Shown: positions 12,105-56,793, counted from the stretch's first letter. The stretch is 64,000 bases of DNA from an archaeon (GCA_035290965.1 DATDTD010000064.1:108-64107), one strand, 5' to 3'. The notes: generated by a model from the letters alone, not told the origin. Made by a program: numbers and translations.

Positions 12105-14318
12105 ATGCAAAAGATTATTAAAACAAAAAACACAAATTATCTGGCGTTTTTTTTGGATTCACTGCACAAGATGTTTGACCCGAAAACAATCTGCGTGATA
12201 GGCGCAAGCAGCAGGCAGAACAGCGTCGGTTTTTCCCTGATGAAAAACCTTGCGGGGACTGATTACAGGGGGACTGTTTATCCAGTAAATCCAAAAAGGC
12301 GCAGTGTTCTGGGAATACGCTGCTATAAGGGCATTCTCGATTTGCCTGAAAAAATCGATTTGGCAATAATCGCGACTCCCTCCTTTACTGTGCCTGATAT
12401 TGTAAGGGAGTGCGTCAAGGCAGATGCAAAATCAATTATTGTCCTGAGTTCCGGTTTCGGAGAAACAGGAAAAAAAGGAATGCTGCTCGAACAGGAACTA
12501 AAAAAAATAATTTCGGGAACAGGAATAAGAATGCTCGGGCCAAACTGCCTGGGTTATATACGCACTGACAAAAAAGTAAATGCAAGCTTTGCAATTCGGA
12601 ATGCGCTTCCCGGAAGAATGGCTTTAATCAGCCAGTCAGGCGCGCTCTGCTCGAGCATTCTTGACTGGGCTTTGAAGCAGCACGTGGGTTTCAAGTATTT
12701 CATTTCAATAGGCTCGATGGCAGACATTGATTTTTCGGATTTGATTGATTTTATAGGAAAGGATCCTGAGGTTGAAAGCATTGCGATTTACATGGAAACA
12801 ATAAAGGATGCGCGCAGGTTCATGAAAGCCGCAAGCAATTTTGCAAAAACAAAGCCGATTATTGTTGCAAAATCCGGAAAATTCGAGGAAAGCGCAAAGG
12901 CGGCTGTTTCCCACACAGGCTCAATGGCGGGAAACGATGCTGTTTTCGATGCCGCGTTCCAGAGGGCGGGAATTGTGCGCGTTGAAAACATTCTGGATTT
13001 GCTTGGCTGTTCAGAAGCACTGGCAAAACAGCCCCTGCCTAGAGGAAACAGGCTTGCAATAATAACAAATGCCGGAGGTCCCGGAGTAATGGCAGTCGAT
13101 GCTGCAATAATGCAGGGCTCGAAAATTTCCGTTCTTTCAAAAAAAGCCTTTTCTTCGCTTGAAAAAACAATGCCTGCCAACTGGAGCCACAGCAATCCGA
13201 TTGATTTGCTCGGCGATGCGGATGCGGAAAGATACGCCAATGCGCTTGATGCAGTCCTCAAAGAAAATTCAGTTGACGGAGCAGTGATTATTTTCAGCCC
13301 GCAGGCTGTTTCAAATCCCGAGGCAGTTGCTGAAATTGTTTCCGCAAAAGCGCGGCATTCCAAAAAAACAATCCTTGCCTGCTGGATGGGAGAATCTTTT
13401 GTCGAGCCAGCGCGTGAAATTCTGCGCAGGCATTCTATTCCCTGCTACAAGACTCCCGAAGAGGCAGTTCGTGTTTTCGGATACATGGATTCCTACAGGG
13501 AAAACAAAAAATGGCTTTTTGAAACTCCTTCCGCAAAGGAATTCCTGCCCAATCCTTCAAGAAAAAAAATACGCGAAAAAATTTCCGAGTACATTGCAAA
13601 GAAAACCCTTGTTTTGAACGAGCTTGACTCAAAGCAGATTCTTTCAGAATACGGGATTCCCGTGAACAAAACTCTTTTTGCAAAGAATGCAAAACAGGCT
13701 GTTTCAAAATCACTGCAGATAGGCTTTCCAGTTGCATTGAAAGTTGTTTCGAGTTCAATAACGCACAAAACAGATGCAAATGCAGTGGCTTTGAACCTTG
13801 CATCCAAAAAAGAAGTTGCAAAGGCTTTTTCCGAAATAATCAGGAATGCAAAAAAATCAGCTCCCAATGCAAAGATTTTAGGAGTTACTGTGCAGGAAAT
13901 GATTCCGCCCGGAAACCTTGAACTGATAATTGGTTCCAAAACAGACAATATTTTCGGGCCAGTAATCCTGTTCGGCTTCGGGGGAATTTCAACGGAAATT
14001 TTTCGCGACACAAGCATCGGGCTTCCTCCCTTGACGCAAAACCTTGCAAAAAGAATGATTGCAGGAACAAGAGTTTCAAGGCTGCTCTACGGGGAAAGAA
14101 AAAAATTCAAGATAAATGTTTCCGAGCTTGAAAAAATTCTTATTGGTTTTTCGCATTTTGCAGTCGACTTTCCTGAGGTTGAGGAAATAGACATTAACCC
14201 GATAATGGTTTCAAACAACAGGCTTTTTGCTGTTGATGCAAGAATAGTGCTTTCCGAAAAGGTTCTGCGCAAGGAAAAAAACTTTGTCGGGCTTGCAATT
14301 TCCCCCAAGGCAGAATAG
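12105..14318 (+). CDS. acd: ADP-forming acetyl-CoA synthetase (fused alpha/beta, NDP-forming acyl-CoA synthetase family)
   Basis: Contains a CoA-binding domain (FDPKTICVIGAS...VYPVNP), a succinyl-CoA-ligase-like region (SQSGAL, phospho-His loop SHTGSMAG) and a C-terminal ATP-grasp. An alternative start is MFDPK at 12171. Confidence 0.85.
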   Translation: MQKIIKTKNTNYLAFFLDSLHKMFDPKTICVIGASSRQNSVGFSLMKNLAGTDYRGTVYPVNPKRRSVLGIRCYKGILDLPEKIDLAIIATPSFTVPDIVRECVKADAKSIIVLSSGFGETGKKGMLLEQELKKIISGTGIRMLGPNCLGYIRTDKKVNASFAIRNALPGRMALISQSGALCSSILDWALKQHVGFKYFISIGSMADIDFSDLIDFIGKDPEVESIAIYMETIKDARRFMKAASNFAKTKPIIVAKSGKFEESAKAAVSHTGSMAGNDAVFDAAFQRAGIVRVENILDLLGCSEALAKQPLPRGNRLAIITNAGGPGVMAVDAAIMQGSKISVLSKKAFSSLEKTMPANWSHSNPIDLLGDADAERYANALDAVLKENSVDGAVIIFSPQAVSNPEAVAEIVSAKARHSKKTILACWMGESFVEPAREILRRHSIPCYKTPEEAVRVFGYMDSYRENKKWLFETPSAKEFLPNPSRKKIREKISEYIAKKTLVLNELDSKQILSEYGIPVNKTLFAKNAKQAVSKSLQIGFPVALKVVSSSITHKTDANAVALNLASKKEVAKAFSEIIRNAKKSAPNAKILGVTVQEMIPPGNLELIIGSKTDNIFGPVILFGFGGISTEIFRDTSIGLPPLTQNLAKRMIAGTRVSRLLYGERKKFKINVSELEKILIGFSHFAVDFPEVEEIDINPIMVSNNRLFAVDARIVLSEKVLRKEKNFVGLAISPKAE

Positions 14319-14329
14319 CGGAAACCCGC
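14317..14329 (+). promoter_or_regulatory. copy 1 of the conserved upstream element AGCGGAAACCCGC (upstream of nurA)
   Basis: Lies 63 nt upstream of the nurA ATG and is followed by the TATA-like GATTTTAAACAA. It overlaps the acd stop codon. Confidence 0.6.
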
Positions 14330-14379
14330 AGCCAGTTAGATTTTAAACAACCTTTTATTCTTTTTATTAATTGTTTCGC

Positions 14380-15480
14380 ATGCAGAACATAAACACTGTT
14401 ATTCAGGAGGCTGTTTCAAGCATTCAGGGCTTGGAGCAGAAAAGAAGCGTTTTTGCAAAAAAAATCCTTCCCTTTTTGAAAACAGACTTATCTTCTCTTT
14501 CTTCTCCCGAATTGCTTGAATCAAGGCTTGTTTTTCCCGTTGAAAAAATCCCCCTCGATTTCAGCATCGGCGGAGTAGATTCAGGCTTTGTGAGCAAGGA
14601 GCTTTTATCGCTTGATTTGGTTTTAGTTCGGACAGTTGGAGTGGTAATGAAATTCAAAAACAACTGCCTTGAAAAAGCGGATTATTACCCCAATTTTTTT
14701 TCCTTTCCCCTTCCCTTCCTGAGCAACCATGCGCTTGAACAGGACGAATTCGCCTGTTCCAAAAGCATCCGCAGGCTGCTCTCTGAAAACAACGCGGCAA
14801 AAAAAATAATTGAGCAGTTCAAGCCCAAATACTGTTTCCTCGACGGCAGCATTGTTCCGCAGTACCCCGACAAGCCGCGCAATGATTCTAAAATAAAGGA
14901 TTTTTACCACGAGCTGATTCAGAGCTTTCAGGATTTGTACAAAACAGCGGAAAAAAACAGCTGCACTTTAATTGCCTGCGTTGAAGATTCGCGTGGAAGC
15001 AGATTCAGAAGCATTCTGCAGGAACAGGTTTTGGAAAAAGCAAATGTTTCAAGCACTGCCCTGAACGACTGCTATGACGCAATCCTGCTTGATTATCTTC
15101 TTGAAACAGGGCAGAGAAGCATGGCTTTCAGGTATTCTCCTGAAATAGAAAAGCACCCTGTCCTTATGGATTTTGAAAAGGGATTTGCGGAGCGCGTGCA
15201 TGCTTTTTACATCAAGCCTGTTGCGCTTGACAGGCCTGTTCGGGTCGAATTTCTGCATTCCTCGCAGGACAATTTTTCGGATTTTGTGAATGAAATAGCG
15301 GGAATTGTTTTTTCTTTATCCTCCTTGCACAGGGAATATGCTTTTCCGAGCGTTTTGATTGAAGCAGACCTTCATGCGCGCCTGAAACCCGAAGAGATTG
15401 AAATCGTTTACCAGAAAATTCTTGACAAATTGAGCAAGAGCGTCAACCTGCGCATGCGCAGGAACAACAGGCCTTTCTAA
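14380..15480 (+). CDS. nurA: NurA 5'-3' nuclease (DSB end resection)
   Basis: NurA-like size and motifs (IGGVDSGF..., ...FLDGSIVP...). It sits in an operon with herA. Confidence 0.75.
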   Translation: MQNINTVIQEAVSSIQGLEQKRSVFAKKILPFLKTDLSSLSSPELLESRLVFPVEKIPLDFSIGGVDSGFVSKELLSLDLVLVRTVGVVMKFKNNCLEKADYYPNFFSFPLPFLSNHALEQDEFACSKSIRRLLSENNAAKKIIEQFKPKYCFLDGSIVPQYPDKPRNDSKIKDFYHELIQSFQDLYKTAEKNSCTLIACVEDSRGSRFRSILQEQVLEKANVSSTALNDCYDAILLDYLLETGQRSMAFRYSPEIEKHPVLMDFEKGFAERVHAFYIKPVALDRPVRVEFLHSSQDNFSDFVNEIAGIVFSLSSLHREYAFPSVLIEADLHARLKPEEIEIVYQKILDKLSKSVNLRMRRNNRPF

Positions 15481-15492
15481 AATGTGAGAAAA

Positions 15493-15690
15493 ATGCAGAA
15501 AAAAATTGTAAAGCTTTGTTCGCAGTGCGGTTCGCAGAGCTTAAAGCCTGCAGTTACACCCTGGAAGGCGCAGGCAGCGGCCTTCGGGCAGTACAAGTGC
15601 CTTGACTGCGGCTTTGAAGGATTTATCATAGAGGCGGATGAAAAATCCGCGGAAAAAATAAGGAAAAAACTGCGAACAAATAAAAAATGA
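15493..15690 (+). CDS. small Zn-ribbon protein embedded between nurA and herA
   Basis: CSQC-x27-CLDC four-Cys ribbon with a basic C-terminus. Its stop overlaps the herA ATG (ATGA). Confidence 0.55.
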   Translation: MQKKIVKLCSQCGSQSLKPAVTPWKAQAAAFGQYKCLDCGFEGFIIEADEKSAEKIRKKLRTNKK

Positions 15691-17264
15691 TTCCCGCCAA
15701 AAATAAAAGCACAAAACAAAAAAAAGGTTTTTTTATGGAAAAGGAAATCGGAACAGTTATTTCGGGAATGGATTCCCCGTCTCCCTCTGCGCTTGATTTT
15801 GTTGTAAACCAGGGAGTTGTGCATAGGGGGCAGTTTGTGGAGCTTGATTATTCCGAAGGCACAATGATCTGCCTTGTAACAGATGTTTACAAAACAAACA
15901 GGTATTTTGAAAGAGCCGAAAGCGTAAAGGAATTCGAAAGCTCGGGCACAAAGCTGTTTGAACAGTTTCCAACCGCAGAATGGGAATACTTGGTTGCAAA
16001 AACAAAACCCCTCGGAGTTTTCAGGGGCGGGCTTACAAAAAGAGCGACTCTTCCTCCTGGCCCAGGAACAAGGGTCAGGATTGCATCAGCGGAAAACCTG
16101 AAAACATTTTTTCATTTTTCAGACGACGGTGTTCTGCTTGGAACAGTTGAAAACCATAATCTGGAAGTAAAAATCTCAATGAACAATCTGCTGAAAAAAC
16201 ATCTTGCAATTCTGGCTTTGAGCGGAGCGGGAAAATCTTATTTGGTTTCTGTTCTGTTTGAAGAGCTTTTGGAAAGGAAAAAAGAATCGGGAAGAATTGC
16301 AACAATTGTTTTCGACCCTCATGGAGAATATTCAAGCTTTGCCGAGAGAATTCCTGAAAAGGGAAAAACAGATTACAGCAGCAGGACAATTCTGGTAAAG
16401 GCAGGGGACATAAAAATAGGAGTTTCAAAAATAAGCATTAATTTTTTGGATTCATTGATTCCCGGCTTGAGCAGCATAATGAAAAGAGACCTTGCAAAAA
16501 TACTCGATTCTCTGCAGAAAAAAATGCGCTCGGGAAAAGGCCCGTTTGATTTTCTGGATGTTGTGGAGGAAATAGAAAAAAGCAGCATTCACGAAAACAC
16601 GCGCAATGCGCTTCTCTCCTGGATTCACGGCCTCAATGAGTTGAATCTTTTCGGAAAAACAGACAATCCCGGAATTTTTGACCTTGCACAGCCGGGAAAG
16701 CTCACAGTGGTTGATTTGTCAGAATTAATCGACCTGAGAAAAAAGCAGATAATTGTTTCTTACATTTCAAGAAGATTGTTTTATGCACGGCGCGATAAAA
16801 GCGTTCCGCCTTTCCTCCTTGTTTTCGAGGAGGCCCACCAGTTCGCGCCCCAGCAAACATCCAAAGAGAGCGCAATCAGCAGGGGAATTATCCAGACAAT
16901 TGCAAGGGAAGGCAGAAAATTCGGGGCTTCGCTCTGTGTTATTTCCCAGAGGCCGATTCAATTGAGCACAACAGTCCTTGCGCAGTGCAACACGCATATC
17001 ATCCTCAGAATTACGAATCCCTATGATTTGAAACACATCGGCGAGAGTTCCGAAGGCCTTGATAACAGGGCTTTGGACATGATTAATTCTTTGCGCGTGG
17101 GAGAGGCGCTAATTGTCGGAGAAGCAACTCATTATCCGCTTTTTTTCAAGGTGCGCGAAAGAAAAAGCGCTGAAAGCCGGCACGAAATTTCCTTGGAAAA
17201 GGCGGGAATTGAATTTGAATCCGCAAAAGAGCAGAAAAATTCTGAAATGGAAGAATTTCTTTGA
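15687..17264 (+). CDS. herA: HerA hexameric DNA helicase/translocase
   Basis: HAS-barrel-like N-terminus, Walker A ILALSGAGKSY, Walker B FLLVFEEAHQFAP, and the downstream RKFG...SQRP. Confidence 0.9.
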   Translation: MIPAKNKSTKQKKGFFMEKEIGTVISGMDSPSPSALDFVVNQGVVHRGQFVELDYSEGTMICLVTDVYKTNRYFERAESVKEFESSGTKLFEQFPTAEWEYLVAKTKPLGVFRGGLTKRATLPPGPGTRVRIASAENLKTFFHFSDDGVLLGTVENHNLEVKISMNNLLKKHLAILALSGAGKSYLVSVLFEELLERKKESGRIATIVFDPHGEYSSFAERIPEKGKTDYSSRTILVKAGDIKIGVSKISINFLDSLIPGLSSIMKRDLAKILDSLQKKMRSGKGPFDFLDVVEEIEKSSIHENTRNALLSWIHGLNELNLFGKTDNPGIFDLAQPGKLTVVDLSELIDLRKKQIIVSYISRRLFYARRDKSVPPFLLVFEEAHQFAPQQTSKESAISRGIIQTIAREGRKFGASLCVISQRPIQLSTTVLAQCNTHIILRITNPYDLKHIGESSEGLDNRALDMINSLRVGEALIVGEATHYPLFFKVRERKSAESRHEISLEKAGIEFESAKEQKNSEMEEFL

Positions 17265-17346: not shown

Positions 17347-17667
17347 TTGGGGCTCAACAGTTTTATTTATTCTGCAAAGAAAAATACTCCAAAGGCAATT
17401 CCGTTCGACCCGAACAAAAAAATCGCTAATTTTATCGATGCAACCGGGGCTTCTGTTGTAAAATCAGATTCAGGAAACGGAAACGGCAATGGAAATGGCA
17501 ATGGGAACGGAAACTGCGGCTTCTCAAACGCAGCCGCGGAAAAATTCAACTGGGAATCCTGCCCGCACCTGAAAAAAACTTCTCCCCATACTCTCTGCAG
17601 GCGCTTCTTCAGCATTTGCGCAAAGGAAAAATGCAAGGGAAAGTTTTTGGAACTCGGCGACCAATAA
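17347..17667 (+). CDS. hypothetical small Cys-containing protein with a (Gly-Asn)7 repeat
   Basis: 106-aa ORF with a TTG start and no internal Met. It has five Cys in its C-terminal half. Confidence 0.35.
   Translation: MGLNSFIYSAKKNTPKAIPFDPNKKIANFIDATGASVVKSDSGNGNGNGNGNGNGNCGFSNAAAEKFNWESCPHLKKTSPHTLCRRFFSICAKEKCKGKFLELGDQ
17473..17514 (+). repeat. tandem hexanucleotide repeat (GGNAAY)x7 encoding (GN)7
   Basis: gga aac gga aac ggc aat gga aat ggc aat ggg aac gga aac, read directly. Confidence 0.9.
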
Positions 17668-17745: not shown

Positions 17746-17758
17746 AGCGGAAACCCGC
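17746..17758 (+). promoter_or_regulatory. copy 2 of AGCGGAAACCCGC (upstream of the PolB-like ORF)
   Basis: Lies 57 nt upstream of the ATG at 17803. It shares the longer GAATAGCGGAAACCCGC with copy 1 and is followed by CCTTTTTAAGCG. Confidence 0.6.
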
Positions 17759-17802
17759 TGTCTAAAAGCCTTTTTAAGCGCCAAAACCCACTTCTTCTCT
17801 GT

Positions 17803-19305
17803 ATGACCTCGAGCACTTCTTTTCAAAATTATTTTGCCGCTTCTGAAAAGACTGAGAATACTATTTTTTGGCTCTCCAGCGCAAAATACTTGGAAGAAAA
17901 AAAGGCAATCCTTGTTGAATTCTCTTCAGGAAACCAGAAGAGGACTGCAAGCATTGCCTTCTTTCCAAGCTTTCTTGTTTCAAAAAAAGCAATTTCAAAG
18001 GAAGACCTGAAAAATGAAATTTCCCTGCTCGGAAACCAGAAATTCACTCTTGCAGAAACAGAAACCTGCTTCAGGGTTGTTTCTACAAATTTTTCCTTTC
18101 TTGAAAAGCTTGCAAACAATATTTTTGCCTCGAACAATGCAATTCCTGTAATGCCCTCCCCCGAAAGGCAGTTCCTCATGGAAAAAAACTGGGGTTTTTT
18201 CTCTGCATTCAATTTTTCAGAATCAGAGGAAATTCCCGAAAAAAACTTTTCCCTGCCCAATATCAAAACAGATTTTTTTTCAGAGCCGCTTCCAAAAACA
18301 ATTTCAGAGCTTGCAAAAATAGATTCTGAAGAGGCAAACTCTATTCTCGCGCTTGTAGCGCTTTCAAAGATTCTCTGCCTGCCGCTTGAAAAAATCCCGA
18401 GCGCTGGCTTTTTGCAGCAGGAAATTTTCCTTGAAAACATTTTTTTCAAAAACAATTTTGCTCCGGAACAATTGTCAAAGCACGACATGCACGAAATCCA
18501 TCTTTCCCAGGCAGCGAGCTTTTTCAGGGGCACTCCCGAATTCGACCTTGCTCCTTTGATTCCCTCGCTTCTTACAGATGCTGTTTACAATCTCGGCCCT
18601 GATTCCATAAATTGTTCCTGCTGTGAGCCAAAAACCCTTGATGCAAAAAACCTTTTGCCAAGCACTCTTGTTGAGGTAGAGTTCCTGAAGGACGCTTTTT
18701 ACTTTGAATCCGGCAATTCCTGCTTTTCAAATGCTTTCCATGAAAGCAATTCCCTGAAAGAAAACAGGCTGCAGAGAAAAAAGGAATTTTTCCTCAAACA
18801 GTTTCCAATTGGGCCTTTCAGCAGAAACCAGGCAAGCCAAATTCCCCTGCCTGATGCAGCCGTGCTTGAGCAGGATTCCTCGGCAAAAATTCTTGGCTTT
18901 AAGGAAAGGCACTGGCACTGCATGAAGCAGGAATCCCTTGTTTCAAAAACAATAAAAGCAATCATGGAGGAAACTGCGGAAGCAAATTCCTTCATTGAAA
19001 AAACCCAAAGGGAGTGCTTTGCAGGCAATGGAATAATGGGTTTTTCGGAAATGGAAAAAAACTTTTCACTGCGCTTTGCTCTTGAATACAAGAAATCTTT
19101 GGAATTTTTCCTTCTCAATCTTCCCGCGCATTTCTGCAACAGGGAAAGCAGGTTTTACAATCCTGTTTTTTCAAGTGCAGTAGAGGCTGTTTACAGCAAT
19201 GCAATCATTGCATTCAATTCCATAAAGCAAAACCCTTCCACAGCCGGCATTCCCAACGAGCGCCTGAACACCTATCTGCTTGCAACAGCAAAAAGGGAAG
19301 AATAA
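17803..19305 (+). CDS. truncated, probably inactive family B DNA polymerase-like protein
   Basis: By-eye collinear similarity to archaeal PolB. Matches include the N-terminal domain (SPERQFLMEKNWGFF vs IPFAKRYLIDKGLIP), ExoIII-like AKIDSEEANSILAL, GFLQQEIFLENIFFKNNFAPEQ, motif A-like EFDLAPLIPSLLTDAVYNLGPDSIN and HWHCMKQES vs RWYCKECAES. Motif C DTD is replaced (FAGNGI). ExoI/II and the thumb are absent. Confidence 0.45.
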   Translation: MTSSTSFQNYFAASEKTENTIFWLSSAKYLEEKKAILVEFSSGNQKRTASIAFFPSFLVSKKAISKEDLKNEISLLGNQKFTLAETETCFRVVSTNFSFLEKLANNIFASNNAIPVMPSPERQFLMEKNWGFFSAFNFSESEEIPEKNFSLPNIKTDFFSEPLPKTISELAKIDSEEANSILALVALSKILCLPLEKIPSAGFLQQEIFLENIFFKNNFAPEQLSKHDMHEIHLSQAASFFRGTPEFDLAPLIPSLLTDAVYNLGPDSINCSCCEPKTLDAKNLLPSTLVEVEFLKDAFYFESGNSCFSNAFHESNSLKENRLQRKKEFFLKQFPIGPFSRNQASQIPLPDAAVLEQDSSAKILGFKERHWHCMKQESLVSKTIKAIMEETAEANSFIEKTQRECFAGNGIMGFSEMEKNFSLRFALEYKKSLEFFLLNLPAHFCNRESRFYNPVFSSAVEAVYSNAIIAFNSIKQNPSTAGIPNERLNTYLLATAKREE

Positions 19306-29322: not shown

Positions 29323-29976
29323 TTACTGCAGGCTTATTCTCTCGAATTTTATTTTTTCTCCCTGCAGTTCAAGCACAATCGCGTGCATGTCCTTTACTGC
29401 GCCCGAGTTTATGCAGAGAGTTTTTCCTATTTTTTCCTCTCCGAATGCTTCGTGGCAGTGCGCGCACAAATGCAGCAATGGCCGGAATTCTTCTATTATT
29501 TTTCTCACTGCGCTTGAGCCTATGTGGACTCCCCTGCTTGCAAAATCAATTTTTGTCCCAAGGGGAGGGAGGTGAGTGCAGAGAACAATGTTTTTTTCTC
29601 CCGCGCAGAGTTTTTTCAAAGTGCTGTAAATTTTTTCTTCCGAAAAATTTGTTTCCCCCGGATTTCCAAGGATAGCGCCTCCGAAGCCAATGAAAGTAAA
29701 ACCTTCAATTTTTGCTTTTTTTGAGTGCAGCGAAATTCCGCGCTCTTCAAAAAACCCTGAAACTTCTTTCAGGTCAAGGTTTCCGGGCAGCGCAAGGATT
29801 TTTTTGTTCCCGATTATCTGCAGGATTTTTTTTATGTCTGAAATCCCCCCGTAATGCGTGTTGTCTCCGAGCAGCAGAACCAGTTCTGTGCCTTTTTGTT
29901 TTTCAAAAGCGCTTTTTGCTGTTTTTTCAAGCATTTCCATGCTTGAATGGATGTCCGCAAAGACTGCTATTTTCAT
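29323..29976 (-). CDS. calcineurin-like metallophosphoesterase (MJ0936/YfcE-like)
   Basis: MKIAVFADIHS, LLLGDN, ALPGNLD, CTHLPP and CAHCHE phosphoesterase motifs. Confidence 0.8.
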   Translation of the reverse strand: MKIAVFADIHSSMEMLEKTAKSAFEKQKGTELVLLLGDNTHYGGISDIKKILQIIGNKKILALPGNLDLKEVSGFFEERGISLHSKKAKIEGFTFIGFGGAILGNPGETNFSEEKIYSTLKKLCAGEKNIVLCTHLPPLGTKIDFASRGVHIGSSAVRKIIEEFRPLLHLCAHCHEAFGEEKIGKTLCINSGAVKDMHAIVLELQGEKIKFERISLQ

Positions 29977-30055
29977 ACACAAGCCTTTTAAATTTTATAT
30001 CTGATAAATAGTAATAATTTCATAACGCAGGTTTTTAATCATAAAGGGGTTTTTC

Positions 30056-33288: not shown

Positions 33289-33648
33289 ATGTGGGAAATT
33301 CTTTTTTTTGCAATAATTGTTTTCCTGATAATCTTCATTGCCTTTCTTTTTTCAAGGTTAAGCGGCCTGCAGAAAACTCTTGCGCACACTGAATTCAGGA
33401 AGGCCAGCCAATCCGTAAAATACGGCAAGCTCACAGAGCAATGGATTCCTTTTTCGGAAAAATTTCCCTTTCCAAGGGAAAACTTCAGGTTTTTAGGAAA
33501 CCCGATTGATGGAATTGCATTCAACGAGGAAAAAATAATTTTCTGCGAATTCAAGGCAAATACATCTGCCTTGAGCGAAAAGCAGAAGAGCATAAAAAAA
33601 CTGGTTCAGGAAAAAAAGGTCGAATGGCTTGAATTAAGGGCTGAATGA
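33289..33648 (+). CDS. membrane-anchored endonuclease distantly related to archaeal Hjc (COG4741-type)
   Basis: N-terminal TM, then GKLTEQWIPF...FRFLGNPIDGIAF.....IIFCEFKAN...LSEKQKSIKKLV. This is a PD-(D/E)xK core (D...E.K). Confidence 0.6.
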   Translation: MWEILFFAIIVFLIIFIAFLFSRLSGLQKTLAHTEFRKASQSVKYGKLTEQWIPFSEKFPFPRENFRFLGNPIDGIAFNEEKIIFCEFKANTSALSEKQKSIKKLVQEKKVEWLELRAE

Positions 33649-36756: not shown

Positions 36757-36769
36757 AGCGGAAACCTGC
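36757..36769 (+). promoter_or_regulatory. copy 3 of the conserved upstream element (AGCGGAAACCTGC)
   Basis: Lies 58 nt upstream of the ATG at 36815. It is followed by TTTCGGCAGGTTATTTAAAAA, in which AACCTGC/GCAGGTT forms a dyad. Confidence 0.55.
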
Positions 36770-36814
36770 TTTCGGCAGGTTATTTAAAAACGAGCAGCCA
36801 TATCCTTTGTAGTT

Positions 36815-37300
36815 ATGTCTAACAGAAAAGAGGTTTTGGGCAAGCTTTGGGCGCATTTTAATTTCAGCCTGAATTCCTTAGTGGATAGAATAGTTTTGCA
36901 GAAAACTATTTATGTTTTGTCTTATCTCAACTATCCAAATCTTGGCGATTACAAAAAAGATTTTGCAATGTATATTCACGGGCCGTATTCCCCCCTTTTA
37001 GCACACGATGCTTATGACCTTTCGGAAAATCTTAAAATAAAATCCGGTTTTTCAGAAACAGAGGAAGAAAAAGTCAGTTTATTTGAAGAATCCGTAAAGT
37101 TTGCCGCAGAAGGAAATAATAAACTGGAACATTTTATGGCCTGCGAATTGGTTGCAGACATAATCTTTTTGTATTCTAATGAAAAAGTCAGGGATGAAAA
37201 CAAACTTTTTGAAATCTTGAAAGAAAAAAAAACCTATTTTAACGATTCCGCCAAAGTTTTTGCAGTAGCCAATTTTTTAAAAGAGAAAAAAATAATCTAG
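36815..37300 (+). CDS. Panacea (DUF4065)-like protein, candidate antitoxin
   Basis: RIVLQKTIYVLSYL......DFAMYIHGPYSPLLAHDAYDL resembles the LQKLLYfa...f.aw.hGPv.p.vy core of DUF4065. Confidence 0.45.
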   Translation: MSNRKEVLGKLWAHFNFSLNSLVDRIVLQKTIYVLSYLNYPNLGDYKKDFAMYIHGPYSPLLAHDAYDLSENLKIKSGFSETEEEKVSLFEESVKFAAEGNNKLEHFMACELVADIIFLYSNEKVRDENKLFEILKEKKTYFNDSAKVFAVANFLKEKKII

Positions 37301-37311: not shown

Positions 37312-37842
37312 ATGGGGAGCCGTGATAAATGCAGTTTCGGGCAGAGCGCCCATTGCACAAGGTGCGGCAAAGCCGACAAATGCCAGCTTAAAAAAATATT
37401 GTGTGATACAAATGTTATTTCCGCTGCATTTCTTGAAGAAAAAGAACAGGATATTGCAATGACGTTCTTGGAAAATCACAGGCAAAAACACCTTATCGTA
37501 ATAACAAAAGAAATTCTTGGCGAAATCATTGGGGTTCTTCTGACAAAGTCAGGCAACGATCAATTGGCACTGGACAATATAACTAAGTTTTTAAGCCATT
37601 TAAAAGATTTTATAGTAGAAAGCCCGCCATATTCTGAAGAAGAGTTTAGAGAAGTTCTGAACAAAATTTGGGATTCAAAAGAACTGCGTTGCGGTTATGC
37701 TGACCGCATCCATATCGCAAACGCAATTTTTTCAAAAATAAAATTTTGTACTCTTGAAGAAAAAATACGTGAAGATGCAAAAACAGTGAATGACATAGTT
37801 TCTGAGGAAGGCTATAAATTTGAATTGTACAATTTACATTAG
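37312..37842 (+). CDS. PIN-domain protein, candidate toxin/RNase
   Basis: ILCDTNVISAAFL (first acidic residue), ...EIL.E..., and C-terminal YADRIHIANAI. It starts 11 nt after the preceding ORF. Confidence 0.55.
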   Translation: MGSRDKCSFGQSAHCTRCGKADKCQLKKILCDTNVISAAFLEEKEQDIAMTFLENHRQKHLIVITKEILGEIIGVLLTKSGNDQLALDNITKFLSHLKDFIVESPPYSEEEFREVLNKIWDSKELRCGYADRIHIANAIFSKIKFCTLEEKIREDAKTVNDIVSEEGYKFELYNLH

Positions 37843-47037: not shown

Positions 47038-47041
47038 TTTC

Positions 47042-50440: not shown

Positions 50441-51634
50441 TTATACCTTTGGCTGCGAGGATTTTATGTAGATTACAAGCATAAGCAGCAGCGCGGGCAG
50501 CACAACCAGATACATGACGCTCATTGTAACGGGAGTCAGCGGCAGCGACTGCAGTGAAACAGTGTTTCCGGTTATTACGCTGTTTCTTATTGCGCCCAGA
50601 ATTCCCATTATTACAGGAAGCCATATTGCAACGAAAATAAATATTACCCCGAAAAAATTCATTCTCTGTGCAAAGTCACGGGTTTTCATTCTAAGTTCAA
50701 AGCCCACATCGTCCGCAATAGTGCTCATTATTTCAGAAAGATTCCCGCCTGTTTTCAATGCGCGTATCATGTGCGTTAAGGAATTTCTCAGCGACTTGTT
50801 CTGCGTCCTTAGAGCAAGCCTGCTTAACGCGTCCTTTATTTCAATTCCCTCCTCAACCTCGTTAATTGTTTTTGCAAACTCCTCGCTTAAAACTCCATAA
50901 TCGGAAACAGCTATTGCCTGCAATGTCCTGTACAATCCCATTCCCGAATGAAGTTCAGTGCTCATGTGCCTTAACGCAAAGGGAAGTTCCATGCTTATCG
51001 CGTCTCCGCGCGATTTTGCCTTCTGCTTTGGAACAGCAAAAATAACTATTACGCTCAAAAAGAAAAACCATATCGCAAGGAGAACCGGCGCCAGAATCTT
51101 CAGGTAAAGCGGCAGCCAGGACAATCCGATTAATATCCCGGAAATTGCAAATACAACGAGCGCGCAGATTGTCGAAAGAGTAACTGTTATTGCAACATAC
51201 TGTTTTACTGAATAGCGCATGTTTGCGGAAAACAAAAAATATGAAAGTGTTTCCATCTGCGGCATTCTTATTACTATTTTGCTCAAGGGGGAGAAAATCC
51301 TTTTTGCCTTTATGTAAAGCATTCCGATTTTTCTCACTGTGGGCGAGCTTACCTCCTGCAGTTCTTCAACCTTCTGGATTTCAATTTCTTTTGTTTTTCC
51401 CTCTGCAATTATTCCTCTCAATTCTCCTAAGCTTCCTTCGAGGCCGCCGTATTCAACGCCTTCCAGCTGGTATTTCCTGCGCATTTTTTGCACAATGCTT
51501 TCCACTTTTTCAACGTCCAATCCTTCCAGCTTTTCCTCTTCGTGCCCTGTTTCCTGCGCAGGCTTCTGCAGGGCTTCGCCTTTCTTTTTGTCCTTTTCCT
51601 CTATTTTCTTTTTTAGGAAATCCAGAGAAGCCAT
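50441..51634 (-). CDS. FlaJ/TadB-like (T2SS-F domain) pilus platform membrane protein
   Basis: 397 aa with an acidic N-terminal cytoplasmic region, TM pairs and a T2SSF-like helical segment (LPFALRHMSTELHSGMGLYRTLQAIA). Confidence 0.7.
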   Translation of the reverse strand: MASLDFLKKKIEEKDKKKGEALQKPAQETGHEEEKLEGLDVEKVESIVQKMRRKYQLEGVEYGGLEGSLGELRGIIAEGKTKEIEIQKVEELQEVSSPTVRKIGMLYIKAKRIFSPLSKIVIRMPQMETLSYFLFSANMRYSVKQYVAITVTLSTICALVVFAISGILIGLSWLPLYLKILAPVLLAIWFFFLSVIVIFAVPKQKAKSRGDAISMELPFALRHMSTELHSGMGLYRTLQAIAVSDYGVLSEEFAKTINEVEEGIEIKDALSRLALRTQNKSLRNSLTHMIRALKTGGNLSEIMSTIADDVGFELRMKTRDFAQRMNFFGVIFIFVAIWLPVIMGILGAIRNSVITGNTVSLQSLPLTPVTMSVMYLVVLPALLLMLVIYIKSSQPKV

Positions 51635-54600
51635 CAGCTTTCCCTCTTTTTGAGAATAAAAGAATTAGTTGCGTCCTGCACGCTCTTCATGTCGCGGATT
51701 CCCTTTTTGCTGAGCCCTCTCAAAAAATCCGCTCTTTCCTTTATTTCAAGTTCAAGATCTTTTTTTGCAAGTCCTGTAAACTCGCCGAGCATCTGAATGT
51801 ATCTTGCGGAAATGCTGCTTCTTTCAAGCAGGTCTTTTACAGGCTCTCTTGAAAAAACAGGCTGTGTCTGGGCTTTTCCCGCGAGGACTCCGCTCACCTC
51901 TGAAATTTCAGTCAATCTTCTTATTGTCCCTTTTTTCTTGTCGTGCAATCTGTGCTCTATCAAAATCAAGTCAAGCCCGCTCAGCATTAATTCCGGAACA
52001 TTCATTGGCGGGCTTGTTATTCTTACAATTGTTTCCTGCGCGGAATTTGCATGGATTGTTCCCATTGAGCCCACATGCCCTGTGTTCATTGCAGTGAAAA
52101 GGCTGAATGCTTCTCTATGACGCACTTCTCCCACAATTATCCTGTCAGGGCGCATTCTCAAGGAGTTTTTTGTGAGAATGTCAAGAGTCAGTTCTCCCTT
52201 TCCTTCAAGTCCTGGGGGTCGTGACTCTAATCTTATCCAGTGCTTCAAGGGAAGGTTTAATTCCGCAGTATTGTGGGCAAAAACATTTGAGCAGACAAAG
52301 TTTTCGCATTCCGGAACAGATAAATCATAAACAGTTCTTTCGGTTTTTTCCAGTGCAATTATTTTTTCTATCTGGTCCCAGAAAATATCGGCTTCTGCAA
52401 GCATTTTGAGTTTTTCATTCGGCTTTTCCTGTGCAATCTTTGCCAGGAATCTCCTTCCGAAGCGGCTTTTTCCGGAATAATATTCGTGCTGAACAGTTAT
52501 TTGCCCTTTAATTGCTTCCAAAAATGCGGCAGGCAATGGAATAATATCTGAACAATCGTGGGTTGCCGGCTTTTTAAGGGCAGTCTCGCGGATTCTTTCC
52601 ATTTTTCTTTTTATTATGAATCCCACGATTTCTTCGAACAGCAAAATATTATTGTAACTTGAAATTCTTCCTTTGAACGTCTTGTCTTTTTGATATGTTT
52701 TTTTTGCAATCCTGCCGTGTATTCCAAGCCTTAACAGCAATGTCTGGACATCTTCCATAAGTTTTTTTGATGCCGATGTCCATTCTATCTCGTTTTTTCC
52801 GACTGTTCCGTCTCCTGAAAAATAACCACTTAAAAATGCAGCGATTTGCCGGTTGTCAAGGCGCATTGTCCAGTCGGGGGCTCTTTTTGTGAAAGCGTTC
52901 CCTTTCAAATCAAGCACATCTTTCATTATTGTTTTTAGCAATGCGGAATTTACCATTGTGGAAAACTTGTCACTGTGCATTTTAGTGCTTATGCCAAACC
53001 GGGCAGCTACTCTCGTTACAAGCTCTTTAAGCTCTGCTTCGCTTACTGAAAATATTATTGAGTTTTTGTCATAACACCCGTCGGCAAGCCACAGTCCCGT
53101 GAGCTCCAGAAATTCCTGGTCGATTTCCAGCATTGCAGGGATTTTAATGCGGCTTCTTCCTGCTTTGAAGCACAGGCCTCTTGCATCCGCATTTGAAAAA
53201 TAGTTTTTTTCAAGCAGTTCCCTGAAAACCCTTACTGGGATAGAGCCTTTTCTTCTCCACAGGTTTATCATTGCACTTTTGCCGCCTGCGGTTTTTTGGT
53301 TAACAAATTCTGAAAGATACTCTTTTGGGATTTTTTTTAAAACACAAGTTATTTTTTCCCCGCATATAAAAAATCTTTCAAGCTTTTCAAGGCAATCCAG
53401 CAGATTAACCTCTTTCAGGCCGCTGGCTTCAAAAGGCAGGCTTCTTGGAGTTGCGATAAAATCGTTTTCCTTTAACTCGCCTGTTTTTATTGCAGAAATA
53501 TTCCCTTCTTCGTCAATGGCAAACAGGGAATGGTCTTCGGTAACTTTAATGCTCTTGCCGCTTTTGAGAATAACTTCAAACATTTTTTTGCATGTTCTGT
53601 GCCTTATAAAACACCTGATTCTTTTTTTCACTATTTTTCCGTTTTTGTCAAAGCACAGTACTTCCAAATCTTCAATGTTTCCGCAAATCTCGTGCTTTTC
53701 CGCAGAGTAACTGCAACCGTGCGTTTCAATCATTTTTTCAACAATTTCCCCGATTTTAACCCTTCTCGGATTGTTTTTTTCAAAAACAATTATTTCCTCA
53801 TCCGCATCAACACTGTCTTCAATTGTAATTATTCTTTCTGATTCGGGAATGAAAGCAGCGAGAACATTCAATGTTGTTGTTTTTCCGCTTCCCGCTCCCC
53901 CTGAAATTAAAATGTTTGCAGGCCTTGAGCCCATTCCTTCCACTGCAAGCCACAAAAATCCCGCAACCTCTGCGCTCATTGTGTTCAGGTTTATCAAATC
54001 CACAATCGAATAAGGATCTTCCCTGAATTTTCTTATTGTTAGAGTGCTTGCTTCAACAGATGCAGGGGGAAAGGTTGCGTTCACTCTGCTTCCGTCAGGG
54101 AGACGTGCATCAAGCAATGGGCTGCTGATATCAACTCTTCTTCCGACTTCGCGCGCAATCCTGTTTGTTAAGTCCTGTATTTCCTGTTCGGAAAAAAATT
54201 CAATGTTTGTTGTCATCATTCCGTACTGCCTGTGAAAAAGGAAAACAGGCTTTTTCGCGCCTACAACCATTATTTCTTCCAGCTTGTCGTCTCTTACAAG
54301 CGGATCAATGATTCCATAGCCCACCATTTCGCGGACAACTGCTTCCGCATAAAAATCAAATCTTCTTTCGGGAATCCTAAGTTCGGGAGCAGAGCGCAGA
54401 ATTTCAAGGATTTTCTGCTTGTAAATCGCTCTTCTCTGCAGTACGTCCCTTATCCTGTAAGGGCTGATTGTAATCAGCCTTGTCGCTGCCTCCTTGATGG
54501 TTGAAACAATTGCCTTTTCAGAGGCAGACGGCCTTGTGACTGGCACCATGTAATAAAGAAGCGGCTTTCCCGGGATCTTGTAAATTTTTACATCGCCATA

Positions 54601-54903
54601 AGCATCAATCTCGATTTTTTTCCCGACTGCTTCAATTTCACGTTCAGCAGTCGATTTTTCTTCCGGTTTCACTGCCCTTTCTTCCTCGGCCTGCTTCATT
54701 GGCTCGCTTATTTCCTGCAGTTTTTTTTTCAGTTCTTCCCCTAGCTCAAACTCTTCCGCTTTTTCGCGCCTTTCGTCGGGCGCTTTTTCAAGGGAAGCCT
54801 TTGCGTCTTCAATTGCAGCCTTTGCCTCTTCCTGAGGAGAGGGCTTTGCCTGTTCCTCAGACTTCGCCCTCATAATCAGTTTTTTCAAATAATCAGTCGG
54901 CAT
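51634..54903 (-). CDS. pilus-assembly ATPase (GspE/FlaI/VirB11 superfamily) interrupted by an intein
   Basis: The exteins carry LLDARLPDGSRVNA, Walker A ISGGAGSGKTT, ERIITIED|...|TAELNL, Walker B RPDRIIVGEVRHREA and His box TGHVGSMGTIHAN. Confidence 0.9.
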   Translation of the reverse strand: MPTDYLKKLIMRAKSEEQAKPSPQEEAKAAIEDAKASLEKAPDERREKAEEFELGEELKKKLQEISEPMKQAEEERAVKPEEKSTAEREIEAVGKKIEIDAYGDVKIYKIPGKPLLYYMVPVTRPSASEKAIVSTIKEAATRLITISPYRIRDVLQRRAIYKQKILEILRSAPELRIPERRFDFYAEAVVREMVGYGIIDPLVRDDKLEEIMVVGAKKPVFLFHRQYGMMTTNIEFFSEQEIQDLTNRIAREVGRRVDISSPLLDARLPDGSRVNATFPPASVEASTLTIRKFREDPYSIVDLINLNTMSAEVAGFLWLAVEGMGSRPANILISGGAGSGKTTTLNVLAAFIPESERIITIEDSVDADEEIIVFEKNNPRRVKIGEIVEKMIETHGCSYSAEKHEICGNIEDLEVLCFDKNGKIVKKRIRCFIRHRTCKKMFEVILKSGKSIKVTEDHSLFAIDEEGNISAIKTGELKENDFIATPRSLPFEASGLKEVNLLDCLEKLERFFICGEKITCVLKKIPKEYLSEFVNQKTAGGKSAMINLWRRKGSIPVRVFRELLEKNYFSNADARGLCFKAGRSRIKIPAMLEIDQEFLELTGLWLADGCYDKNSIIFSVSEAELKELVTRVAARFGISTKMHSDKFSTMVNSALLKTIMKDVLDLKGNAFTKRAPDWTMRLDNRQIAAFLSGYFSGDGTVGKNEIEWTSASKKLMEDVQTLLLRLGIHGRIAKKTYQKDKTFKGRISSYNNILLFEEIVGFIIKRKMERIRETALKKPATHDCSDIIPLPAAFLEAIKGQITVQHEYYSGKSRFGRRFLAKIAQEKPNEKLKMLAEADIFWDQIEKIIALEKTERTVYDLSVPECENFVCSNVFAHNTAELNLPLKHWIRLESRPPGLEGKGELTLDILTKNSLRMRPDRIIVGEVRHREAFSLFTAMNTGHVGSMGTIHANSAQETIVRITSPPMNVPELMLSGLDLILIEHRLHDKKKGTIRRLTEISEVSGVLAGKAQTQPVFSREPVKDLLERSSISARYIQMLGEFTGLAKKDLELEIKERADFLRGLSKKGIRDMKSVQDATNSFILKKRES
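52270..53814 (-). mobile_element. 515-aa intein with a LAGLIDADG homing-endonuclease domain inside the pilus ATPase
   Basis: Starts SVDADEEIIV (block A, Ser1), has block B TEDH, LAGLIDADG motifs LTGLWLADGCYD and AAFLSGYFSGDGTV, and ends VYDLSVPECENFVCSNVFAHN|T. The exteins rejoin to match ERIISIEDTIELDF of the paralogue at 26630. Confidence 0.85.
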
Positions 54904-54978
54904 TGAAACCGATAAGAAAACAGCTTTTTTGAATAAAAACCTTCCGTGCGCCTGAGATGCCTGTTTTCAGAAAAGAAC

Positions 54979-56715
54979 TCATTCCTTTGCTTCGATTTTT
55001 TTCAGGGTTTCTTCAATAAAATCAGTTATTTTTTTTGTTTCTGTTTTGCTGCTTCCCCTGTTTCTCACTGTGACAGTGTTTTCCTTTTCTTCCCTGTCTC
55101 CCACAACAAGAATGAGCGGGACTTTTTCAAGTTCAGCCTGCCTTACTTTGTGGGAAATTGTTTCCTGTTCCCTGTCGACTTCGGCGCGCAAATTTTTTTC
55201 AAGCATTTCTTTTGAAATTTTTTCAGCAAATGCAAAATGCCTGTCTGCAATCGGCAGAATCTTTATCTGGACAGGGCTCAGCCATAATGGAAAGTTTCCC
55301 GCAAAATGTTCTATCAGGATTGCCATGAATCTTTCAAGGCTTCCGAAAGGAGCGCGGTGAATCATTACTGGCCGGTGCGGCTTGTCGTCTTCTCCGATAT
55401 AACTCAAATCAAATCTTTCAGGGAGATTGTAATCAACCTGAATTGTGCCGAGCTGCCATTCTCTCCCCAGGGAATCCTTCACAATAAAATCAAGCTTTGG
55501 GCCGTAAAAAGCTGCTTCGCCTTCTTCGGCTGTAAAGGGAAGTTTTGTTTCCTTCAAAACCTGTTCAATGTCTTTTTCGGCTTTTTTCCAGTTTTCATCG
55601 CTGCCGATGTATTTTGAGGAATCACCGCGCTTTCCGAATCTTGCCCTGTAATCTGAAAATTTCAGTGCATTGAAAATCATTTTTACAATGTCCATTACTG
55701 CCTTGAACTCTGTTTTCAATTGTTCCGGCGTGCAGAAAATATGCGCATCGTCCTGGGTAAAGCCCCGTACTCTCACTAATCCGCTTAACTCTCCCGATTT
55801 TTCATATCTGTAAACAGTTCCGAATTCCGCATACTTCAAAGGAAGCTCCTTGTAAGAGCGCCTTTTCATTTTGTAAACCTGTATATGGTGCGGGCAGTTC
55901 ATCGGCTTGAGCAGAAATTCTTCTTCTTCGATTTTTATCGGGGCATACATGCTTTCCCTGTATGTTTCCAAGTGCCCGGAAGTTTTGTACAAATCTATTT
56001 TTGCAATGTGCGGAGTAACAAGAAATTTGTATCCTTCGCGCAACTGCTGTTTTTTCAAAAAAGCTATCAGCTCTTCCCTTATGACTGTTCCTTTCGGAAG
56101 CCAGATCGGCAATCCCGCCCCAACTTCTTTTGAAATCAAAAAGAGTTCCTGTTCTTTTCCTATTTTCAAATGGCTTCTCTGTTCGGCCTCTTCGCGCTTT
56201 TTCAGCCATTCATCAAGCATTTTCTGTTCGGGAAAAGAAATTCCGTAAATCCTCTGGAGCATTTTATTTTTCTCAGAACCTTTCCAGTATGCTCCCGAGC
56301 TTCTCAATAATTTCACTGCCTTTATTGCCTCTGAATTTTCAATGTGCGGCCCTTTGCATAAATCAGTGAAGCTTCCGTTTGTGTAAGTGGAAATTTTTCC
56401 CTCTTCAAGCTCGTTAATCAGTTCAATTTTGTAAGGCTCGTTTTTGAAAACCTGAAGCGCGTCTTTTTTTGAAATTTCTTTTTTCACAAATTTTTCTTTT
56501 TTCTTTGCGATTTCAAGAATTTTTTTCTCAATCCTTTCAAGGTCCTCGGGAGAAAACGGTTTTTCAACATCAAAATCGTAATAAAAACCCTCTTCAATCG
56601 AGGGGCCTATTGCAAGCCTTGCATCCGGAAACAATTCTTTCACTGCTGCGGCTAAAACATGGCTTGAGGAGTGCCAGAATTTTTCCCTGTAAGACGCGTC
56701 GTTCCAGTTCGGCAT
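54979..56715 (-). CDS. thrS: threonyl-tRNA synthetase (catalytic core + SAD + anticodon-binding; no long N-terminal editing/TGS region)
   Basis: HSSSHVLAAA (SAD HxxxH), class II motifs (FLLKPMNCPHH; GLVRVRGFTQDDAHIF; the motif 3 region) and a C-terminal anticodon-binding domain. Confidence 0.9.
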   Translation of the reverse strand: MPNWNDASYREKFWHSSSHVLAAAVKELFPDARLAIGPSIEEGFYYDFDVEKPFSPEDLERIEKKILEIAKKKEKFVKKEISKKDALQVFKNEPYKIELINELEEGKISTYTNGSFTDLCKGPHIENSEAIKAVKLLRSSGAYWKGSEKNKMLQRIYGISFPEQKMLDEWLKKREEAEQRSHLKIGKEQELFLISKEVGAGLPIWLPKGTVIREELIAFLKKQQLREGYKFLVTPHIAKIDLYKTSGHLETYRESMYAPIKIEEEEFLLKPMNCPHHIQVYKMKRRSYKELPLKYAEFGTVYRYEKSGELSGLVRVRGFTQDDAHIFCTPEQLKTEFKAVMDIVKMIFNALKFSDYRARFGKRGDSSKYIGSDENWKKAEKDIEQVLKETKLPFTAEEGEAAFYGPKLDFIVKDSLGREWQLGTIQVDYNLPERFDLSYIGEDDKPHRPVMIHRAPFGSLERFMAILIEHFAGNFPLWLSPVQIKILPIADRHFAFAEKISKEMLEKNLRAEVDREQETISHKVRQAELEKVPLILVVGDREEKENTVTVRNRGSSKTETKKITDFIEETLKKIEAKE

Positions 56716-56780
56716 AGTATCACTTCAATCAATAATTCTAATTAAAAAAGGGTTAAAAATTCTGCCGTTTTCCTGCAATC

Positions 56781-56793
56781 AGCGGAAACCCGC
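56781..56793 (+). promoter_or_regulatory. copy 4 of AGCGGAAACCCGC (upstream of nreA)
   Basis: Lies 54 nt upstream of the ATG at 56835 and is followed by GCGCGAACAGGTTAATTAAATTT. Confidence 0.6.

Follow-up and report, generated by a model that had tools for sequence, protein, structure and literature searches.

Does a short sequence that recurs upstream of several DNA-repair genes in one archaeal contig mark a common regulatory signal, and if so, what kind of protein would read it and in response to what? The question is raised by a 64,000-nucleotide stretch of an archaeal genome assembly (GCA_035290965.1, DATDTD010000064.1:108-64107; hereafter the window), in which a first-pass annotation made from the sequence alone had noticed a conserved 13-nt element at a fixed distance upstream of nurA-herA, a gene for a protein resembling family-B DNA polymerases (PolB), a pair of genes of which one encodes a PIN-domain protein, and nreA. 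We found four matches to the element, AGCGGAAACCYGC, in the window, all on the + strand and each oriented towards its gene; their positions and their distances from the downstream ATGs are those first given, and these ATGs are also the start codons in the gene calls of public assemblies. The first copy overlaps the TAG stop of acd, the gene for ADP-forming acetyl-CoA synthetase, by 2 nt, as had been noted, and the A/T-rich TATA-like boxes of the first description begin 10–12 nt past each of the four copies. The four sites span about −41 to −65 from the ATG, just upstream of the B recognition element (BRE) and TATA box. Chance would rarely produce such a set: in dinucleotide-preserving shuffles of the window the mean number of matches was 0.01, and 0 of 100 shuffles reached four.

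The 13-mer appears to be the core of a site of ~17 bp with a consensus of about tTCA[G/C][C/G/T]GGAA[A/G]yc[C/T]GCtc, in which GGAA is the best-conserved part. The site is asymmetric: its 5′ block (tCA-s-y-GGAA) is strong, and its 3′ block (yGCtc or CACTC), roughly one helical turn further on, is weaker. At 17 other gene starts of the window, among them those of rad50, hjc, a second resolvase-like gene, RFC, dnaG, ABCE1, thrS, pelota and acd, we found no comparable upstream site, nor did a look for weaker ones before rad50, hjc, RFC, dnaG, ABCE1 and a LAGLIDADG–HTH gene starting at 41203 turn any up; the earlier remark that no copy precedes a housekeeping gene here thus holds. When two mismatches were permitted, a single extra match appeared, at 41923. 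It lies antisense within a gene, lacks a TATA box and scores 17.6–18.0 bits with a position weight matrix (PWM), where the maximum score of random windows averages 15.5 and reaches up to 20.7, and we dismissed it as chance. The bare cores GCGGAAA and CGGAAAC are of no use as markers by themselves, being frequent inside genes, for example in P-loop codons.

That the element is a dispersed repeat such as a miniature inverted-repeat transposable element, that it forms an RNA hairpin or terminator, or that it recurs by chance is scarcely credible. The first-pass annotation had itself named a dispersed repeat as a finding that would overturn its reading; we rejected this candidate because only the motif and the A/T box align between copies, whose flanks have no extended similarity or terminal inverted repeats in common. 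A hairpin has in its favour that GCGG-AAAC-CCGC can pair over 4 bp, and a terminator that copies 1 and 2 come after a same-strand gene. The pairing is not preserved in relatives, for example in CACCGGAAATCCACTC; the genes on either side of copies 3 and 4 diverge, so that these copies cannot be terminators; and Rfam covariance models run against the window matched, at their gathering scores, only three tRNAs, none of them at the element. Against chance stand the expectation of 0.01 and the conservation of the element in orthologous promoters, described below. At copy 3 only, a 7-bp inverted repeat (AACCTGC / GCAGGTT, loop TTTCG) spans the 3′ end of the motif up to the TATA box.

The closest genomes to that of the window are metagenome-assembled genomes of Candidatus Iainarchaeum/Diapherotrites (DPANN), and groundwater metagenomes contain contigs, up to 227 kb long, that encode proteins identical to those of the window. 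The window comes from an Iainarchaeon, and we denote the loci fetched for comparison by L numbers. Orthologous promoters in other Iainarchaeia carry the element at the same position, related genomes being among those that the first-pass annotation had proposed to search. At nreA loci of other Iainarchaeia, whose NreA proteins are 50–77% identical, a GGAA-centred element lies ~55–68 nt before the start and 8–14 nt before a TATA box, examples being TACCGGAAACCCGCTC, CACCGGAAACCTGCTC, CAGGGGAAATCTGCGC and TATGGGAAATGCGC. With a PWM from whose training the relatives' nreA sites had been left out, 9 of the 22 nreA promoters of relatives scored 10 bits or more at −55 to −68, as did none of 374 control open reading frame (ORF) starts. 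Conversely, when the PWM was built from other genomes only, the four copies of the window ranked 1, 2, 3 and 6 among 128,000 positions. The site is likewise found at the same position in nurA promoters (L043, L045, L046, L052 and L130) and in promoters of the PolB-like gene (L043, L045, L047 and L130), L130, for one, having it before both genes, and in L043 and L045 the promoter of the PolB-like gene contains two tandem copies 27 bp apart. This conservation is seen only by reading the promoters and with the PWM; a search of the relatives' loci for the exact 9-mer GCGGAAACC returned nothing at orthologous promoters. Bathyarchaeial nreA loci and HerA loci of other DPANN lineages (L048–L062) have no such site. 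In the nreA promoters of L013, L015 and L018, which lack a forward site, a TTTCC(G/C) core, the reverse of GGAAA, lies near the TATA box ~30–50 nt before the start; it may be a flipped site or a coincidence.

Two more distant Iainarchaeial loci, L128 and L129, in which the PolB-like protein is only ~30% identical, are the most informative. At the same promoter position they carry [A/G]CCGGCA rather than CCGGAA. In L128 this 7-mer occurs four times in 21.5 kb when both strands are counted, and all four occurrences lie 52–55 nt before a gene: nurA, herA, the PolB-like gene and rad50. The three occurrences in L129 likewise all sit in promoters, those of nurA, the PolB-like gene and a LAGLIDADG gene. 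The gene order in both is nurA – zinc-ribbon gene – herA – PolB-like gene – rpoK – S17e – rad50. A gene for a HAD-family hydrolase is inserted between nurA and the zinc-ribbon and herA genes in both loci, and in L128 herA, parted from nurA in this way, is separately transcribed and has its own site. The gene rad50, a target in L128, has no site in the genome of the window. Since the change from CCGGAA to CCGGCA is concerted over all target promoters, it points to a single trans-acting factor whose specificity has drifted, and the motif would illustrate the co-evolution of a site with its factor in which the targets are retained.

We conclude that the site is real, fixed in position, conserved in orthologous promoters and co-evolving across the promoters of a genome, and that the first-pass suggestion of a promoter-proximal signal common to DNA-repair genes is borne out by this conservation and by the concerted change in distant genomes. 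As for its function, we consider it probable that the element is a transcription-factor site abutting the BRE and TATA box, and that it defines a regulon for double-strand-break repair and damage tolerance. The core of this regulon across the class comprises nurA-herA, which serve DNA end resection, the degenerate PolB-like protein and nreA; rad50, the antitoxin/PIN pair and free-standing LAGLIDADG homing-endonuclease genes are members in some genomes.

A sequence-specific transcription factor of these DPANN archaea very likely binds the site. The site ends 10–12 bp before the TATA box and 3–4 bp before the presumed BRE, a distance at which a bound factor would touch TFB or TBP. In other promoters of the window, TATA-like boxes lie ~30–40 nt before the ATG, which suggests that transcripts are probably leaderless or short-leadered and that the site stands upstream of the transcription start. 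Archaeal factors that bind just upstream of BRE and TATA usually activate by recruiting TFB or TBP, as with Ptr2, TFB-RF1 and the upstream SurR and TrmBL1 sites, and archaeal repressors usually overlap the TATA box, the BRE or the start site. On this ground we lean towards an activator that recruits TFB or TBP. The same site could instead be the operator of a LexA- or DdrO-like repressor that blocks assembly of TFB and TBP at the BRE and is released on damage, a possibility that we regard as real though doubtful. Its 3′ block ends only ~3–4 bp from the presumed BRE, the damage regulons of bacteria (SOS and the radiation/desiccation response motif (RDRM)/DdrO system) are repressor-based, and toxin–antitoxin and mobile-element genes typically ride in derepressible regulons. 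However, the site lies wholly upstream of the TATA box, away from where archaeal repressors usually bind, and the second copies 27 bp upstream in L043 and L045 suit cooperative activation better than occlusion; these tandem distal copies support activation. They also tell against the very unlikely reading that the element is a core-promoter feature, an extended BRE read by an alternative TFB or TBP paralogue, since a second copy at such a distance could not serve as a BRE. Such a feature would agree with the fixed TATA spacing, strict orientation and asymmetric sequence, but the site starts over 20 bp before the TATA box, further out than any known BRE reaches.

The identities of the genes behind the sites bear directly on this regulon. 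Pfam matches confirm the earlier naming of nurA, herA and nreA. Between nurA and herA lies a gene for a small CxxC zinc-ribbon protein, and relatives have a gene of 55–65 residues at the same position. The stretch from herA to the PolB-like gene contains another small ORF with Cys residues; it encodes a (Gly-Asn)n run, derived from GGAAAC/GGCAAT-type hexamer repeats at ~17470–17520, and a CAKEKCK motif that is kept in L130. We saw no recognisable Mre11 gene adjacent to rad50 in the window, where a 200-residue protein of no known kind is encoded downstream of rad50 and a 219-residue metallophosphatase elsewhere. The window also holds two genes of Holliday-junction-resolvase type, Hjc and Endonuc_Holl.

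The 500-residue product of the second target could be identified by structure prediction; sequence searches did not suffice. It has no match in Pfam or NCBIfam even at E 10, and sequence searches of the PDB were empty or marginal. Its ~40 homologues are all hypothetical proteins, from sources that, where named, are given as Diapherotrites, 'ainarchaeum' or 'archaeon'. The AlphaFold (AF2) model built on 34 homologues has a mean predicted local distance difference test score (pLDDT) of 86 and a predicted TM-score (pTM) of 0.85. In a Foldseek comparison of this model with the PDB, each of the top 50 matches is a family-B DNA polymerase (Pol ε or the Pfu, KOD or 9°N enzyme), with probability 1.0, E down to 4e-7 and a TM-score relative to the query (TMq) of about 0.45. 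A profile search of PDB sequences with the family likewise gave only family-B polymerases, weakly (E 0.16–1.1), and its alignment places DFSxxxPxL...NIGxDT on PolB motif A (DxxSLYPS), the DTD of motif C (YGDTDS) being replaced. Because both the fold comparison and the weak profile alignment point to family-B polymerases, the first-pass label 'PolB-like' is well founded, and the model indicates that the protein is a miniature PolB of catalytically degenerate appearance. Within the family D248 is nearly invariant and D351 invariant; there is also an invariant CxCC cluster (C271, C273 and C274), and the gene is always syntenic in the order herA – PolB-like gene – rpoK – S17e – rad50. The protein resembles the archaeal PolB2 (Dpo2) translesion polymerases (PMC8764526, PMC11791011) in its shrunken family-B fold, apparently degenerate catalytic motifs and probable repair-type regulon. 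Unlike them, it has no detectable similarity to any Pfam polymerase model and is restricted to Iainarchaeia, and no PPB2 or iRadA partner genes adjoin it. The motif would give a functional context, in repair or damage tolerance, to this uncharacterised mini-PolB family and to NreA.

The third target is a pair of genes, followed in the window by ABCE1, that the first-pass annotation had called a Panacea/PIN pair. The PIN domain and the toxin–antitoxin-like reading stand, and the Panacea assignment does not: the first protein, of 161 residues and with four homologues only, has no Pfam match at E 10, the hidden Markov model of DUF4065 (Panacea) included. It matches the C-terminal toxin-binding part of DarG antitoxin models (NCBIfam E 0.035, PADLOC E 1.9e-4), and the sole convincing structural neighbour of its predicted structure (pLDDT 83) is the DarG chain of the DarTG complex (7yk3; TMq 0.61). 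In L123 the pair occurs in another neighbourhood, after a DHH phosphoesterase gene and with no ABCE1, and its promoter carries TCAGGGGAAACCCGCTT 55 nt before the ATG (score 21.6). The two genes are thus adjacent in two different neighbourhoods, as expected of a type II toxin–antitoxin pair, and form a toxin–antitoxin-like pair. As the site stays with the pair in L123, where ABCE1 is absent, it belongs to the pair and not to ABCE1.

Free-standing LAGLIDADG genes are a further group with the site. A fifth, weaker copy, AGCGGAAAGCCAGC, lies in the same genome ~560 nt to the left of the window, 71 nt before such a gene (L126), and LAGLIDADG genes in L007 and L011 have independent, high-scoring sites before them (24.3 bits in L007); with L129, this makes four genomes. 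The L007 protein ends in an ArsR-type winged helix-turn-helix domain. We considered whether LAGLIDADG proteins, with or without a helix-turn-helix (HTH) domain, could themselves be the regulator, by analogy with WhiA, and rejected this, the proteins having diverged even where the sites of the genomes are nearly identical. Because the four proteins are 21–30% identical or have no detectable mutual similarity, we read their genes as mobile endonuclease genes that acquired the signal. They may be selfish genes expressed along with the host recombination machinery. The motif hints that genes for homing endonucleases and toxin–antitoxin pairs tap the break-repair programme of the host, as mobile elements exploit the SOS response of bacteria. 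LAGLIDADG elements abound in this lineage, as free-standing genes and as inteins: the window has a gene for a 513-residue LAGLIDADG_3 + HTH_3 (XRE-type) protein after ABCE1 and convergent with it, whose promoter, upstream of 41203, contains no regulon site; inteins with LAGLIDADG domains interrupt a T2SSE/FlaI-type ATPase gene in the window and a CDC48 gene just past it (L127); and L130 has an intein in NifU.

What would induce the regulon is suggested by its content. The bacterial SOS regulon comprises recombination genes, a family-B polymerase (polB/dinA), toxin–antitoxin modules and mobile-element genes. Among archaea, an experimentally defined, Orc1-2-dependent damage response of S. islandicus activates nurA, rad50, mre11 and herA together with dpo2, the gene of an 'inactivated-looking' PolB (PMC6061795); no polymerase of that organism is damage-inducible other than Dpo2, a PolB for long believed to be inactive (PMC7390963). 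Haloferax NreA acts together with PCNA, which it binds, in the repair of mitomycin-C damage (PMC7776575). On the parallel in gene content with the Sulfolobales Orc1-2 and SOS regulons, the programme is most likely a damage or double-strand-break response, and DNA damage or double-strand breaks would, by a slight preference, be the inducing signal. It is rather unlikely that the regulon is tied to the cell cycle, to replication or to another stress instead. The binding of NreA to PCNA (PMC7776575) would fit this, as would the use of end resection and specialised polymerases at forks that stall in unperturbed growth; yet RFC and dnaG in the window have no site, and the set of resection genes, a degenerate PolB, a toxin–antitoxin pair and homing endonucleases mirrors known damage regulons.

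Several points weigh against a repair regulon under one factor. Repair and replication genes of the window, namely rad50, hjc, the second resolvase-like gene, RFC and dnaG, are without a site; the target set is therefore narrow, and the label of a DNA-repair regulon rests on a handful of genes. About one third of the relatives' nreA promoters have no recognisable site on the gene strand. The Iainarchaeial sequence scanned amounts to ~0.7 Mb, in fragments of each genome, and no autoregulated transcription-factor gene was seen in it. The TATA and BRE assignments are predictions from sequence. In the literature searched we found no paper on promoter motifs or regulons in Iainarchaeia or Diapherotrites. 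To our knowledge there is almost no evidence of a dedicated DNA-damage regulatory network in Archaea outside Sulfolobales, and none in reduced-genome DPANN. The motif provides a concrete candidate regulon for this uncultured class, and the site can be used as bait for its regulator.

One candidate for that regulator can be named from the likeness of the site to an origin recognition box (ORB). The factor could be a winged-helix protein of the Orc1/Cdc6 family, and the site derived from an ORB half-site, in the manner of Sulfolobales Orc1-2 and its DNA-damage-responsive element (DDRE); we think this improbable. The string tCA[G/C]yGGAAAC agrees with the right-hand part of the euryarchaeal mini-ORB, GTTCCAGTGGAAAC (PMC1868953), at 9–10 of 11 positions, the DDRE ANTTTC that is footprinted by Orc1-2 (PMC6061795) has GTTTC/GAAAC in common with the site, and the outputs, a degenerate PolB with nurA, herA and rad50, are the same. 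In L112, a contig from hypersaline brine, three direct repeats TTTTCACCGGAAACGTGGTGTGTTCA with the same core lie in ~600 bp of non-coding DNA, arranged as at an origin. These repeats, whose reverse complement is TGAACACACCACGTTTCCGGTGAAAA, have spacings of 374 and 209 bp, and the gene-poor stretch that contains them may be a replication origin with ORB-like boxes having a CACCGGAAAC core. Against an Orc1/Cdc6 factor, the likeness was noticed post hoc, concerns only half of a dyad and leaves the spacing off by 1 nt when the left TTC is aligned; relative to the gene, the site points the other way from the DDRE; and the CCGGCA variant of distant relatives is no longer ORB-like. Neither an Orc1/Cdc6 gene nor an ORB cluster or origin was found in any of the fetched Iainarchaeial loci with a Walker-A pattern and with tblastn using S. 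solfataricus Orc1-1 (query checked against PDB 2QBY_A), the sole match being CDC48. The stronger proposal, that a DPANN Orc1/Cdc6 protein doubles as the master regulator of double-strand-break repair through an ORB-derived half-site beside the BRE, is a long shot. If true, initiator-mediated damage control would be ancient and widespread in Archaea, and LAGLIDADG endonucleases and the toxin–antitoxin pair would have repeatedly captured its signal so as to be co-expressed with the host recombination machinery. We know of initiator-mediated damage control in Sulfolobales only.

Table 1. Coordinates of the motif copies, their promoters and the genes and other features discussed (window coordinates unless a locus is named; functions of TATA-like boxes are predicted).
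Feature	Position	Strand	Details
Resolvase-type gene (Hjc/Endonuc_Holl), first	5515-5946	+	
acd	12105-14318		ADP-forming acetyl-CoA synthetase
Motif copy 1, AGCGGAAACCCGC	14317..14329	+	63 nt before nurA ATG; PWM 18.6
TATA-like box, nurA, ATTTTAAAC	14340..14348	+	10 nt after motif
nurA	14380..15480	+	366 aa; Pfam NurA E 4e-9; gene call
CxxC zinc-ribbon gene	15493..15690	+	65 aa
herA	15687..17264	+	525 aa; Pfam DUF87/HerA E 1.6e-30, HAS-barrel
Small Cys-containing ORF	17347-17667		
Motif copy 2, AGCGGAAACCCGC	17746..17758	+	57 nt before ATG of PolB-like gene; PWM 21.4
TATA-like box, PolB-like gene, CTTTTTAAG	17770..17778	+	
PolB-like gene	17803..19305	+	500 aa; predicted PolB fold, Iainarchaeia-restricted family; motif A apparently retained, motif C (DTD) apparently not
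rad50	20511-22571	-	start at 22571; no site
Metallophosphatase gene	29323-29982		219 aa
Resolvase-type gene (Hjc/Endonuc_Holl), second	33289-33648	+	
Motif copy 3, AGCGGAAACCTGC	36757..36769	+	T variant; 58 nt before 161-aa gene ATG; PWM 21.8
Inverted repeat at copy 3	36763-36781		
TATA-like box, 161-aa gene, TTATTTAAAA	36780..36789	+	
161-aa gene, putative antitoxin	36815..37300	+	helical; resembles toxin-binding C-terminal domain of DarG
PIN-domain gene, putative toxin	37312..37842	+	176 aa; Pfam PIN E 8e-7
LAGLIDADG_3 + HTH_3 gene	39662-41203	-	513 aa; no site
T2SSE/FlaI-type ATPase gene	51634-54903	-	contains intein
Motif copy 4, AGCGGAAACCCGC	56781..56793	+	divergent thrS-nreA intergenic region; 54 nt before nreA ATG; PWM 24.1
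TATA-like box, nreA, TTAATTAAA	56805..56813	+	
nreA	56835..58067	+	410 aa; Pfam Nre_N E 2e-94, Nre_C E 2e-33
LAGLIDADG gene, L126	833-1729	-	with site
LAGLIDADG gene, L007	7725-8921	-	with site
LAGLIDADG gene, L011	1502-2407	-	with site
LAGLIDADG gene, L129	16744-17598	+	with site
[A/G]CCGGCA, L128	5107, 7077, 9948, 14056(-)		
[A/G]CCGGCA, L129	6287, 9948, 16692		
HAD-family hydrolase gene, L128	6236-6913		
HAD-family hydrolase gene, L129	7431-8102		
CDC48 gene intein, L127	18958-20774		just past window
Direct repeats, L112	6511-7119		three copies

Set beside known systems, the element is close in character to the Sulfolobales Orc1-2 DDRE (5′-ANTTTC-3′, PMC6061795), which is likewise short, promoter-proximal, near BRE and TATA, and common to damage-response genes. 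The DDRE outputs, an 'inactivated-looking' PolB (dpo2) with nurA, herA, rad50 and mre11, have their counterparts in nurA, herA, rad50 (in L128) and the PolB-like gene, all of which carry the site here. The DDRE hexamer itself is not present: the reverse complement of the motif, GGTTTC, matches five of its six positions, on the strand opposite to the gene. The DDRE lies at −23 to −55 from the ATG, which overlaps the range of the element in part. The element differs further in its wider flanks and opposite orientation, in belonging to DPANN and not Thermoproteota, and in the membership of its regulon, which has no ups, ced or tfb3 genes and includes nreA, a toxin–antitoxin pair and LAGLIDADG genes.

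The resemblance to ORB and mini-ORB sites (GTTCCAGTGGAAAC; PMC1868953, PMC1904270) lies in their right half, CAGTGGAAAC, which is nearly identical to CAG[C]GGAAAC of the element and accounts for the 9–10 of 11 matching positions; the left TTCC half of the dyad is not conserved in the element. ORBs are dyads clustered round an A/T-rich unwinding element next to orc1/cdc6, whereas the element occurs as single or tandem-double sites in ordinary promoters, with no cluster and no orc1 gene nearby.

The SOS box of LexA and the RDRM of Deinococcus DdrO resemble the element in that a single short site is common to recombination genes, a specialised polymerase (the E. coli polB/dinA product is a family-B enzyme), toxin–antitoxin modules and mobile-element genes. 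Those sites are palindromic repressor operators placed over bacterial promoters and read by bacterial LexA or DdrO, whereas the element is asymmetric and stands upstream of an archaeal TATA box. In this position, immediately upstream of BRE and TATA, it resembles the sites of Ptr2 and TFB-RF1 and the upstream SurR and TrmBL1 sites, to which its motif and regulon are unrelated. With neither the DDRE hexamer nor the ORB architecture, and given that LexA and DdrO are proteins of bacteria, the element does not belong to the DDRE, ORB, SOS or RDRM systems; it would function likewise, as one short site that marks a repair regulon.

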